A stretch of 64,000 nucleotides of DNA from Nitrospira sp. (GTDB lineage: Bacteria; Nitrospirota; Nitrospiria; Nitrospirales; Nitrospiraceae), in the NCBI GenBank assembly GCA_029194725.1, contig JARFXQ010000013.1, positions 2,611-66,610 of the forward strand. The letters are read 5' to 3'. Numbering within the stretch: position 1 is the first letter of the stretch; every line of letters starts with the position of its first letter. The notes under the pieces were generated by a model. It ran no database searches. It saw nothing but the letters and a program-made list of their open reading frames with translations, and was not told the origin of the DNA. This document shows, in pieces, positions 18,991 through 27,827 of the stretch. The translations under genes and the position numbers were made by a program.

Positions 18991-19329
18991 TTAACCTTCA
19001 GCAACGTTCGGGAACAAGGATTTCAGCTGCATAGCCAGCCCGATATCCCCAGTGACTTGCAAACGCCCCGACATGGCCATCATCACCCCGCTCAGCCGTC
19101 CATTCAGGACCCCGATGCAATCCTCTCCAGTCATCGACAAGATCACATGCGGATCAGAATGGGTTCCATCCTTCACGACGCAGGTTCCATTGTGCACCAG
19201 CAGATGGTACTGGCCGCTTTGATTTCCTCGAAGGTCGAACTGGTAGATGACATCAAGATCTTCAGCTGCATCTTTATTGAATTTTAATGGAAGTGAGTCG
19301 AGCACCTCTCTGACAGTCGGGGCTTTCAT
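18991..19329 (-). CDS. SCP2 sterol/lipid-binding domain protein
   Basis: YQFDLRG...AMSGRLQVTGDIGLAMQL pattern typical of SCP2. Confidence 0.85.
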   Translation of the reverse strand: MKAPTVREVLDSLPLKFNKDAAEDLDVIYQFDLRGNQSGQYHLLVHNGTCVVKDGTHSDPHVILSMTGEDCIGVLNGRLSGVMMAMSGRLQVTGDIGLAMQLKSLFPNVAEG

Positions 19330-19423
19330 GTCTCGATGATACCTGTGACGTTGGATGGTTAAAGTGTTCGGGGGCGCTATTCTCATCTCACGCCCCCGAA
19401 GCGAACTCGATATGGAAAAAGTT

Positions 19424-19864
19424 TCAGTACCGGAGTGTGGCGGTCGCAACACTACGACGGGCGCCGAAAAACTCCTTCGAAAACGACTCGACGACCGTGG
19501 GATCATACCCCTTGCAGCTGAAAATGTCGAGGTAGGCATGATTGGTTTCATTGGCAAAATGGCCGCTGATCAATGAGGTTGAGATCAGCTGCACCATGGA
19601 GTAACCGGCGACACGGCCTTCGCCGAAATTGACGACCTGGCATTTACCGTAGCGCTTCATGCCGATGAGCTCACAGAGCTCAACTACATAACGCTTAATA
19701 TGGTTCGCATCACGTATGAGATCGGGATTGCAATCGTGGAGATCAACGGCGGTGCAGAGCCCCCATGCCTTGCCGCTTCCCACCATGTCCTTGACAGGAT
19801 GAGGAGCAGCCGCAGGGGCGTTGGATGGTAAGATCGCGGACTCGGAACTGGCTGAGGTACTCAT
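19424..19864 (-). CDS. S-adenosylmethionine decarboxylase-family pyruvoyl proenzyme
   Basis: VDLHDC, GYSMVQLISTSLISGH and YLDIFSCK motifs. Confidence 0.75.
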   Translation of the reverse strand: MSTSASSESAILPSNAPAAAPHPVKDMVGSGKAWGLCTAVDLHDCNPDLIRDANHIKRYVVELCELIGMKRYGKCQVVNFGEGRVAGYSMVQLISTSLISGHFANETNHAYLDIFSCKGYDPTVVESFSKEFFGARRSVATATLRY

Positions 19865-20041
19865 AGAGGGTTAATCCCTTTCTGTAAAATGGTTGTGTTG
19901 ACAGGAACTCTCATGCGTGAACTATACCATAAATTCTCTTGCCGCGAATAAGAGCCGTGAGGAATATTTTGGCTTTGAGGGGGTGAGGCACGCTATTCTC
20001 CATCGGTTGACAAGGTCATGGAGCTCGGAACAATATGCCTC

Positions 20042-20221
20042 ATGCCATCCGCCCCCAACACTTCCAGGACCGAGTTGCCCGATCGTCTCTGCACTTGGTG
20101 CAAGGTTCTCATGAGGAAGCGGCTAGTGGGCGGCAGCCAATTCATCCATTACACCTGCCCAAAATGTATCTTTCAGCACACCACTAGACGTGGATCGGCA
20201 CTTCGGACACCGCATCGATAA
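20042..20221 (+). CDS. Small zinc-ribbon protein, hypothetical
   Basis: CTWC...CPKC pairs; TTGACA upstream at 20007. Confidence 0.55.
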   Translation: MPSAPNTSRTELPDRLCTWCKVLMRKRLVGGSQFIHYTCPKCIFQHTTRRGSALRTPHR

Positions 20222-25859: not shown

Positions 25860-26231
25860 CTATTTGTGGCGTGTTTCAAATGCCGAGATCGTCAGCTTGT
25901 ATTGCCGTCGGCAGTCGGTGCAGCGCAACCGCACGAGATCCTGAAACACATCCATTTCACGGAGCGACAGCGAGGTATGATGTGTCGAGACGCAAGTCTT
26001 GAGGAGCGCCTCAGCGTGTTGTTCATCGCTCGGTGTGTCTTCTTCTGACGGTTGTGACGCCAAGGGCTCCTTTGAACTGACCGTGGCAACCGTTAGATAA
26101 TGGGTCGACTTGCATGAACTACAAGAGAGCACCACTGCACGGTCATCCCTCAGTCGCTTGATGGACACACACAGGGGATGGACCGACCAGCACTGTTGCA
26201 GAAACGCCCCGCTTCGGATGACCTGCGCCAT
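25860..26231 (-). CDS. Hypothetical zinc-binding protein with two CHCC-type repeats
   Basis: C-x3-H-x18/19-C-x2-C occurs twice. Confidence 0.75.
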   Translation of the reverse strand: MAQVIRSGAFLQQCWSVHPLCVSIKRLRDDRAVVLSCSSCKSTHYLTVATVSSKEPLASQPSEEDTPSDEQHAEALLKTCVSTHHTSLSLREMDVFQDLVRLRCTDCRRQYKLTISAFETRHK

Positions 26232-26241
26232 GATCGTCTGA

Positions 26242-26370
26242 GCAGGTTGTTGATAAAGCCCCCCAGCGGCGTTCTCGCAGCGATTAGAAAGCTCTACGTA
26301 CTACTCAGAGTACGTGCTTCGCCTCTTCGCTTCCTGCGCTGTTGCTGGACGACGTTTTTGACCAGCCTGC
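26242..26370. mobile_element. MITE/REP-like non-autonomous element with imperfect terminal inverted repeats
   Basis: GCAGGTTGTTGATAAAG ... GTTTTTGACCAGCCTGC (12/17 match as inverted repeats); internal CCAGC/GCTGG pair; no transposase. Confidence 0.6.
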
Positions 26371-26457
26371 GGGCTCCTGTGATAATGAAGTGAGACTTCT
26401 GAAAAGCGCTAAGTCACTCCCGACTCCCGAGTGTGGGGCGGGACGAAGAACCGGAAT

Positions 26458-26748
26458 TCAAAGCATCGCTCCCACAGGCACCCCATCTTTCTTCGGAGAA
26501 GGAGAGATGGCCCCCTCCTGGATCGAACGACAGGTTTTGCACACCCGCGGTCGTGCTTTCAAGAAGGAGACTTTCCCACTGGCAAGACAACTGTAGTGAA
26601 CAAACTCGTCACAGACCGTGCAACGAGACCAGCCTCCCCGAAGCATCGTTTTGTCCCGATACAGGTCTTCGCGGCACACCCTGCAAAGGCGCGGCTCGAT
26701 CGGAAGCGTCATCGGCTCCCACTCACCGCCAGCTTTTCGAATACTCAT
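26458..26748 (-). CDS. Small C4HC3 (PHD-finger-like) zinc-finger protein
   Basis: CRVC-x17-CTVC-x4-H-x2-C-x15-CKTC; alternative start at 26712. Confidence 0.7.
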   Translation of the reverse strand: MSIRKAGGEWEPMTLPIEPRLCRVCREDLYRDKTMLRGGWSRCTVCDEFVHYSCLASGKVSFLKARPRVCKTCRSIQEGAISPSPKKDGVPVGAML

Positions 26749-26789
26749 AGCGGAGGGAGTATAGCGGGACAACCGGCGGAAAAACAAGC

Positions 26790-27008
26790 GAAGGGTAAGC
26801 TGGTACCAGGTTTTCTTTGCAGAAATTGCCTTCGACGTCTTGCGTATCCATGCCGAACAACATTTTCTGCCTCTGCAACCCACGCCTCATCCACGGCCGT
26901 CAGTCGCTCGTCGTGCATCTGAGCCAGCAAACGCTCTGCCGACCGTTCACGTTCTGTCGAGGGAAGCCTTCCGGCCTGCCTTTCAAGCGCTAATGCATGG
27001 CTAGTCAT
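26790..27008 (-). pseudogene. Frameshifted remnant of an addiction-module antitoxin (TIGR02574-like)
   Basis: SD GAGGAGG; MTSHALALERQAGRLPSTERERSAERLL...VDEAWVAEAE, continuing in another frame after the A-run at 26863-26866 as KCCSAWIRKTSKAISAKK. Confidence 0.55.
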
Positions 27009-27142
27009 CGGCATCCTCCTCGGCCAACCACCTTCAGTTTCCAACTCTCTTTACGTTGGAGATAGGTCAATCGTCATACTTATGACCCAGCTTCTCAAGC
27101 GGAGAGATGGCGGATGCGAACCGTGCGACCTTCCACGCGCGG

Positions 27143-27565
27143 CTATTTGCCGCCGCCTGCAGCCGACTTGGTGGCGTGTGATATTCCAAGCCATCGGAGA
27201 GCGTCCTCAGGCCTGTCGAATGCCCTGACAAGCATGCCACGGTTCACTGCAACCGTTTCTCCGAACCTCCCTGGGTCAAGCACTGGTTCTTTTAGGACGA
27301 ATGCGAATTGTGTGGAAGGGGATACGCCCCGTTGTGCAAAGTCCCTGATCGTGTGAGCGGCGAATTCTCCGTAATAGAAGCGTTCCACTGTGCCCGGTTT
27401 TCCGACGAGCTTCCGCCCATCAAAGAACACTTTCTTGGCCTTGTGCCGTGCAACAGCCTCAAGGACCTCTACGAAGTTTCGTTTCGCGTCTTTTAACGAA
27501 AACTTCCCTATTGCGTCTACGGTGAGGATGCCTGATTCAACGTGTATTGCTAATAGCATGCTCAT
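27143..27565 (-). CDS. Hypothetical protein, possibly STAS/SpoIIAA-like
   Basis: KVFFDGRKL, FGETVAVNRG and AFDRPEDALRWL pattern. Confidence 0.6.
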   Translation of the reverse strand: MSMLLAIHVESGILTVDAIGKFSLKDAKRNFVEVLEAVARHKAKKVFFDGRKLVGKPGTVERFYYGEFAAHTIRDFAQRGVSPSTQFAFVLKEPVLDPGRFGETVAVNRGMLVRAFDRPEDALRWLGISHATKSAAGGGK

Positions 27566-27827
27566 GAGATCACCAGCCTTTCCAGCAAACGATTTGCGAG
27601 GGTCCGACGCACGATTGGAGGCGGAGGTGGCGTCGAAGGCTGCGAGCGTCTGGCAGCAGCAGCAGCAGCGGCTGATTGCGCGGCATCCAATGGGATCATA
27701 GGGAAAGGTCCATACATGATTGCCGATATGGATATTTCTTCGCACCATACCGAGTCATGTCGTCCTTCGCAACCTGCATGTGCGGGATGAGGGTACAGGT
27801 TCGGATGGTTGTGGTACTATGCCGTGC

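Follow-up and report, generated by a model that had tools for sequence, protein, structure and literature searches.

Membrane reading by FYVE fingers and chromatin reading by PHD fingers are regarded as eukaryotic functions. A further kind of finger, C1, also inserts into membranes and is recognized by its N-terminal His ligand and its single last Cys. In prokaryotes, binuclear treble-clef fingers reportedly form an already known class, described by Burroughs in 2011 and also entered in Pfam as PF14446 (Prok-RING_1). In PMC7614390, a cross-brace topology is given as common to FYVE and PHD fingers, and PMC3017826 defines the features by which FYVE domains are known, namely the turret loop and the WxxD, R(R/K)HHCR and R(V/I)C motifs.

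Here, we analyse the gene for a 96-amino-acid (aa) zinc finger encoded in a 64,000-nucleotide stretch of DNA from Nitrospira sp. (the whole stretch is called the window below). The order to which it belongs, Nitrospirales, includes the main nitrite oxidisers and the comammox organisms. The finger joins PHD ligands to a FYVE-type C-terminal motif, and does so in a near-universal, single-copy gene of one bacterial order. What is new is the Nitrospirales finger itself, which lies outside every Pfam and NCBIfam family cut-off; the binuclear treble-clef class as such is not new. An open-access literature search found no account of this family, which subscription papers or supplements could name. 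The protein is small and easily expressed, and can be used to test what such fingers bind in cells without histones or endosomes. Its gene is also a clean marker for Nitrospirales.

The finger gene and its distribution

The finger is encoded on the minus strand (Table 1), and the frame on the plus strand of the same interval was rejected as its shadow. Its ligands are spaced C22-x2-C25-x17-C43-x2-C46-x4-H51-x2-C54-x15-C70-x2-C73 (26685..26530), exactly the C4HC3 arrangement reported in the preliminary description of this DNA. All eight ligands are invariant in alignment A1 (56 sequences), and the full motif is present in 60 of 60 genome loci (59 genomes) and in 139 of 145 database homologues. 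Of the six misses, two have a single ligand substituted, one is a degenerate copy and the other three are truncated or frameshifted; all six are excluded from the column counts given below, which rest on 194 unique motif-bearing sequences. When a broad C4HC3 pattern is run over the 29,731 six-frame ORFs of the genome, the 96-aa finger is its single match, and none of 20 within-ORF shuffles gives any. The genome (assembly 78% complete) carries amoA, and the named homologues of the finger are hypothetical proteins of Nitrospira or Nitrospirae; on these two grounds, the host is most likely a comammox Nitrospira.

Table 1. Coordinates of the finger gene, its residue motifs and its flanking elements in the window
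Feature	Position	Strand	Basis or remark
96-aa C4HC3 zinc-finger gene, single-copy core gene of Nitrospirales	26458..26748	minus	ORF, distribution, dN/dS, RNA-library contigs
Ligand set, predicted two-zinc cross-brace FYVE/PHD fold	26530..26685	minus	alignment A1 and model
M35-L36 hydrophobic pair, Cys2-Cys3 loop	26641..26646	minus	place of FYVE turret loop (inferred equivalence)
K64-x-R66-P67-R68-V69-C70 basic segment ending in R(V/I)C	26539..26559	minus	FYVE-like
5' remnant (15 codons, then stop) of lost three-helix gene	26414..26461	minus	probable; frame of relatives' -4 overlap
-10 hexamer TATACT	26758..26763	minus	9 nt before ATG
-35-like hexamer TTGTTT	26782..26787	minus	18-nt spacer

The gene is under purifying selection, with a dN/dS of about 0.05. 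Mean identity of the finger core is 66.8%, against 70.8, 74.7 and 62.8% in neighbouring enzymes (171 pairs, 19 loci). The taxonomic distribution, which the preliminary description had proposed to check, is sharply bounded and the ORF is conserved. A single-protein search finds the finger in 59 of 61 relatives and in all 85 order genomes searched, and in none of 215 other Nitrospirota genomes. A profile search recovers it from 198 of 201 Nitrospirales genomes, 196 of them with exactly one match; beyond the order, a single partial match (E 0.0045) was found among 181. No relatives were found in viral contigs, plasmids or phages. A search of all representatives gave 37 matches, and the eight inspected were family members, fragments or one apparent chimera. 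One match from this search, P0152, was rejected as a chance repeat and not a relative. A single record, P0148, is a protein that we take to be Rex-like, with the C-terminal half of the Nitrospirales finger at its end, and is probably an assembly chimera.

How widespread are fingers of this type? All species genomes were scanned with a C4HC3 pattern that misses genes with codons not fitting its first four bases; the 120 stretches listed contained 44 in-frame motifs. Ten belong to the Nitrospirales finger family (record titles Nitrospira, Nitrospirales or Nitrospirota/Nitrospirae) and two are archaeal RING/PHD-like fingers: a membrane-fused RING-like C4HC3 finger from a Nitrososphaeria genome (L164:2-445) and a tandem C4HC3 finger protein from a Promethearchaeota genome (L197:286-726). 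The other motifs resemble cysteine-rich repeats, zinc ribbons, a ferredoxin-type motif or shadow frames. Within the scan's sample, such fingers therefore look rare in bacteria.

Predicted fold and residue anatomy

No Pfam or NCBIfam family scores above its cut-off for the finger. The best Pfam match is C1 (PF00130), which covers ligands 1-6 at E 2.6e-4 and 21.2 bits (cut-off 26.5); the best-matching member of the finger family reaches E 1.3e-5. Pfam PHD (PF00628) follows at 15.7 bits (gathering threshold 24), with a best member at E 0.0026, and RINGv at 12.1 bits (21.6) and E 0.23. Among the 56 members, weak matches at E 0.05 are seen to C1_1 in 55, PHD in 38, PHD_4 in 32 and RINGv in 2 (best E 0.027). 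Pfam FYVE (PF01363) is unlisted at E 1 and was found at the finger gene in none of five genomes, and PF14446 has no match in this genome or in 91 other order genomes. There is a faint likeness between A1 and one Prok-RING_1 member (hhalign probability 11.8%, E 0.0025), as well as an Atlas lead of 0.88 to a cluster with 34% PF14446. A sequence search of the PDB gave nothing below E 0.018, its weak matches including nuclear-receptor and VAL fingers (E 0.5-6), and a viral fold library nothing below E 0.03.

The AlphaFold model is of moderate confidence (mean pLDDT 66.7, pTM 0.45). It shows a short hairpin (residues 40-51) and a helix (71-78), and its tail is disordered. Near the top of the Foldseek list stand FYVE, FYVE-related and PHD entries and no others; the first is a PHD at E 0.045, and none reaches E 0.001. 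In the VIA structure search, the best match is the Slac2-a SHD (Z 6.2, rmsd 4.3, 66 aligned), followed by the RUFY FYVE domain (2yw8; Z 5.1, rmsd 2.1, 51 aligned), rabphilin (5.0), the Vps27 FYVE domain (4.9; rmsd 2.5, 54 aligned), Hrs, endofin, EEA1 and Slp4 (all 4.5), the first PHD entry, BPTF (4.3), and RIM (4.2); 49 of the 50 matches listed are FYVE, FYVE-related, Rubicon RH or PHD. A Foldseek-independent search of 48,161 chains agrees, with Slac2-a at 5.5 and the RUFY FYVE domain at 5.1 (rmsd 2.1, 51 aligned). Rabphilin, Hrs, endofin and EEA1 again stand above the first PHD (BPTF, Z 4.2), and the top 18 all come from the same four groups; RING entries rank low (Z 2.4-2.6), and the Hpy99I treble clef reaches 3.2.

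These Z values are modest, and values below 8 can mirror a common arrangement; moreover, the best PHD matches lie within about one Z unit of many FYVE matches. The safe statement is thus that the finger belongs to the FYVE/PHD superfamily, cross-braced and leaning towards FYVE. Two zinc ions in interleaved sites would follow from the fold matches, the model itself holding no metal. The preliminary description had named two sequential zinc ribbons as the outcome that would overturn its proposal, and for the predicted model the top structural matches are cross-brace fingers instead. The fold search that it suggested against PHD, RINGv and FYVE puts FYVE-like folds slightly ahead of PHD, with RING low. 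Its label of a rare prokaryotic PHD/RINGv-like module thus survives in part: we retain a rare, conserved bacterial finger with a predicted FYVE/PHD cross-brace, but not the RINGv half of the name.

The residues around the ligands carry traits of both families. On the PHD side are the His as fifth ligand and the invariant W40, three residues before Cys3. F49, two residues before the His, is present in 183 of 194 sequences and replaced by V in 11, and position 21, before Cys1, is variable; we take the positions of W40 and F49 to be those that line the PHD cage. On the FYVE side, the missing aromatic residue before the last CxxC, noted in the preliminary description, is indeed absent: every one of the 194 sequences has Arg (R68) there, where FYVE domains carry R(V/I)C. 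K64, R66 and P67 are equally universal, and position 69 is V or I in 186. In the loop that would correspond to the turret, position 35 is M, L, F or I and position 36 L or F in all 194. Five basic residues (R31, R42, K64, R66, R68) are invariant, and the net charge of the core ranges from +3 to +11 (mean +6.6, 60 loci). The WxxD motif is absent: its place reads W10-E-P-M, with W in 173 of 194 and no Asp at +3 among the residues listed. R(R/K)HHCR is absent too, G-G-W-x-R-C occupying its place. Since both motifs are lacking, the finger is not a PI3P-binding FYVE domain. No conserved His precedes C22.

The membrane-protein gene and the neighbourhood

The finger gene was first described as stand-alone. 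At the protein level this stands: 7,984 candidates were scored without a longer, fused form turning up, though the tool itself rates such evidence as weak. At the gene level, in contrast, the finger is ancestrally paired with a membrane-protein gene. A gene for a three-helix hydrophobic protein of 90-130 aa directly follows it in 35 of 60 loci, spread over all four families (f1 to f4), and in 26 of the 35 the two genes share a -4 start/stop overlap. The three-helix gene occurs in 167 of 201 order genomes: in 152 of 155 outside the genus of our host and in 15 of 45 within it. It belongs to an unannotated family with 959 homologues and invariant G38, R57, E71, F72, P98 and G102 (L058:5685-6020), for which there is no meaningful Pfam, NCBIfam, Atlas or Foldseek match.

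The overlap is ancestral, and our host's own lineage lost the membrane gene. The 22 partner-less loci of the genus form one clade in the finger-gene tree, which is built on about 200 nt with no support test and in which 20 of the 22 were picked as best query matches. This genome gives no profile match to the three-helix gene; what is left is the probable remnant of Table 1, whose resemblance to the start of the intact L040 gene was judged by eye. Pooled over the 22 close partner-less loci, dN/dS of the finger core is 0.049, compared with 0.063 in eight partner-bearing loci of the genus, so the partner is not essential to the finger's role. A strict tie between partner loss and comammox was considered and rejected, as amoA occurs both among members of the genus that lack the partner (17 of 20) and among those that keep it (6 of 15).

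In families f1-f3, the usual divergent neighbours are genes for a polyprenyl synthetase, an NAD-dependent epimerase and a carotenoid-biosynthesis membrane protein. In this genome, the isoprenoid genes sit on another contig (C6) and not beside the finger. In f4, these neighbours are absent, and genes that we take, from their sequences, to be ferredoxin-oxidoreductase-like lie upstream. Between the latter and the finger, one f4 locus holds a divergent gene for a 118-aa four-CxxC protein (L031:6275-6628); a homologue of this protein is probably encoded on contig C28, outside the window.

Several further features of the surroundings may be recorded. At the former site of the membrane gene lies a palindrome-rich repeat of about 130 nt (26241-26373), with three copies in the assembly, which draws many loose-ended contigs of other organisms in RNA runs and is probably a MITE- or REP-like element of Nitrospira. 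Next to it, 25860-26231 (minus strand) encodes a 123-aa protein with two CxxC-containing halves and weak zinc-ribbon matches only; its gene is conserved at this downstream position in 15 of the 40 large loci, every one of them from f1. Elsewhere in the window, a small CxxC protein (20018-20221, plus strand) is encoded beside an SCP2 lipid-transfer gene (18991-19557); in f3, a longer four-CxxC homologue (L043:5436-5714) and SCP2 come directly after the finger and membrane genes. The place of the relatives' polyprenyl synthetase is taken on the minus strand by an ORF with a weak addiction-module antitoxin match (26745-27044, E 0.003) and a SpoIIAA-like ORF (27143-27748, E 0.02), a local rearrangement.

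Promoter and transcription

The -10 and -35-like hexamers upstream of the finger gene are shared widely. All 55 genomes of families f1-f3 have a TAnnnT box (TATACT in 53) that ends 6-10 nt ahead of the ATG, together with TTG at a spacer of 16-19; none of the four f4 genomes has the arrangement. Such a position of the -10 box implies a leaderless or near-leaderless mRNA, as predicted from sequence. Near-consensus -10 boxes at the same distance (6-10 nt) precede 38 of 3,410 candidate start ATGs in this genome, where Shine-Dalgarno-like words dominate before candidate starts; the finger gene thus falls in a small class of probably leaderless genes. A generic promoter scan did not list its -35/-10 pair, and there is no Rfam match near the gene.

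RNA-library contigs from three studies cover the finger gene, in libraries that may include DNA and that give neither level nor start. In two runs of one sample, contigs end at 26747 with adapter-like loose ends, and high-depth contigs of X3 and X4 end at 26725; those in X1, X2, X4, X7 and X9 reach through or past the promoter.

Proposed role and alternatives

Our main reading, to which we assign a probability of roughly 40%, is that the finger acts as a basic, membrane-docking peripheral adaptor at the cytoplasmic face of the inner membrane. The comparison with FYVE domains suggests that R31, R42, K64, R66 and R68 may contact the anionic head groups of lipids, or some other ligand that carries phosphate, and that residues 35-36, the hydrophobic pair, would insert into the bilayer. 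On the same analogy, a protein partner could bind to W40 or to the conserved N-terminal arm. Across most of the order, the finger would have the three-helix protein among its docking partners; this partner is dispensable, since our host's clade lost its gene and the finger stayed unchanged. Two other prokaryotic fingers of similar type, L076 and L164, carry a hydrophobic segment of their own. Speaking for a membrane role are the FYVE-like fold, R68-V69-C70, the hydrophobic residues at 35-36, the charge, the likeness to C1, the overlapping membrane gene and the isoprenoid neighbours. Speaking against it are the moderate model, the absence of PI3P motifs and of a Pfam FYVE match, and the nature of the top matches Slac2-a, rabphilin, RIM and Slp4, which are FYVE-related fingers of protein-binding Rab effectors. 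In addition, 30 of the 45 genomes from the host's own genus gave no match to the partner, yet the finger keeps its low dN/dS there (0.049), and the isoprenoid link is broken in this genome and absent in f4.

Those same Rab-effector matches are what a soluble protein-protein adaptor would predict, one that serves a conserved Nitrospirales protein or complex and is possibly a regulator or a proteasome substrate adaptor. We consider this conceivable but rather unlikely. Conservation of the core is close to that of the neighbouring enzymes and hints at a partner that is itself conserved; the finger has persisted where the membrane gene was lost; and proteasome-family genes occur in all of five genomes. 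However, no recurrent protease, ubiquitin-like or regulatory gene appears among the neighbour families listed (40 loci of up to 12 kb), and a soluble adaptor leaves the membrane-gene overlap unexplained. The preliminary description had offered a reader of modified peptides or a degradation adaptor; possibly one of these is right, given W40, F49 and the proteasome genes.

A nucleic-acid-binding finger, whose Arg/Lys surface would contact DNA or RNA in, for example, a transcription, ribosome or nucleoid factor, seems doubtful to us. It would fit the net charge and the five invariant basic residues, the faint PDB matches to nuclear-receptor and VAL fingers, and a consensus-like leaderless promoter, as expected of a housekeeping role. 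Nonetheless, treble clefs of that sort come low in the fold search (Hpy99I), and neither the hydrophobic loop pair nor the membrane-gene overlap is explained.

Lower still do we place a PHD-type reader of a methylated or free N-terminal peptide on a non-histone protein, which we judge improbable. Although the His at ligand 5, W40 and F49 at the presumed cage positions, the weak Pfam PHD matches (38 of 56 members) and the top Foldseek match all point that way, every PHD score is below cut-off, F49 gives way to V in 11 of 194 sequences and the residue before Cys1 varies. Histone reading, the established PHD function named in the preliminary description, is not supported: the histone fold was found in none of five genomes, with a control that was positive in three archaea. 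A histone-tail-mimic N-terminus was also considered and dropped, the N-terminus being altered in f3 and absent in f4. Finally, a RINGv-like E3 ligase, the other established function named there, is very improbable: its C4HC3 ligand order, the faint Prok-RING_1 likeness and the pairing with a membrane protein, reminiscent of membrane RINGv ligases, are outweighed by the low RING ranks, the sub-cut-off RINGv profile, the lack of any E1, E2 or ubiquitin-like gene among the neighbour families listed and the lack of the E2 family (PF00179) in five genomes, an absence that is weak since the control was silent everywhere.

Returning to the membrane-docking adaptor, its broadest form is speculative and, in our view, unlikely to hold in full. 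That is, bacteria would have FYVE-like membrane readers of their own, here an order-defining finger that senses lipid or phosphate and shares a leaderless transcript with a small membrane anchor, as one instance of a 'finger plus anchor' theme. If this were true, then the theme, together with the membrane-fused archaeal and Prok-RING_1 fingers, could be the source of FYVE and PHD.

Comparison with known systems

Among described families, FYVE (PF01363; EEA1, Vps27/Hrs, RUFY, endofin) resembles the finger in its predicted cross-brace, the R(V/I)C before the last Cys pair, the hydrophobic residues in the loop before Cys3 and a basic surface. In contrast to FYVE, the finger has His at ligand 5 and a longer first loop (17 residues), is bacterial and stand-alone, and lacks WxxD, R(R/K)HHCR and a Pfam FYVE match. 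The FYVE-related Rab-effector fingers (Slac2-a/melanophilin, rabphilin, Slp4, RIM; Z 6.2, 5.0, 4.5 and 4.2) include the highest Z and share with it the absence of a PI3P motif and a C-terminal helix after the last CxxC, whereas the finger model has no long flanking helices and is that of a C4HC3, stand-alone bacterial protein.

C1 (PF00130) is the best Pfam match over ligands 1-6, but the finger has no N-terminal His ligand and ends in two C-terminal Cys. PHD (PF00628) shares the C4HC3 spacing, the W-x2-C-x2-C-x4-H-x2-C core, the weak profile matches and the BPTF structural match (Z 4.3); it differs in that the finger has Arg for the aromatic residue two positions before Cys7, scores below cut-off and is accompanied by no histone fold found in five genomes. 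Lastly, Prok-RING_1 (PF14446) has no match to the finger, which possesses a full fourth CxxC pair and whose membrane part is a separate gene. It is nevertheless with Prok-RING_1 and other prokaryotic binuclear treble clefs that the finger shares the C-x2-C...GG-[FW]-x2-C-x2-C-x4-H-x2-C core and, through the N-terminal hydrophobic segment of L076, an association with the membrane.
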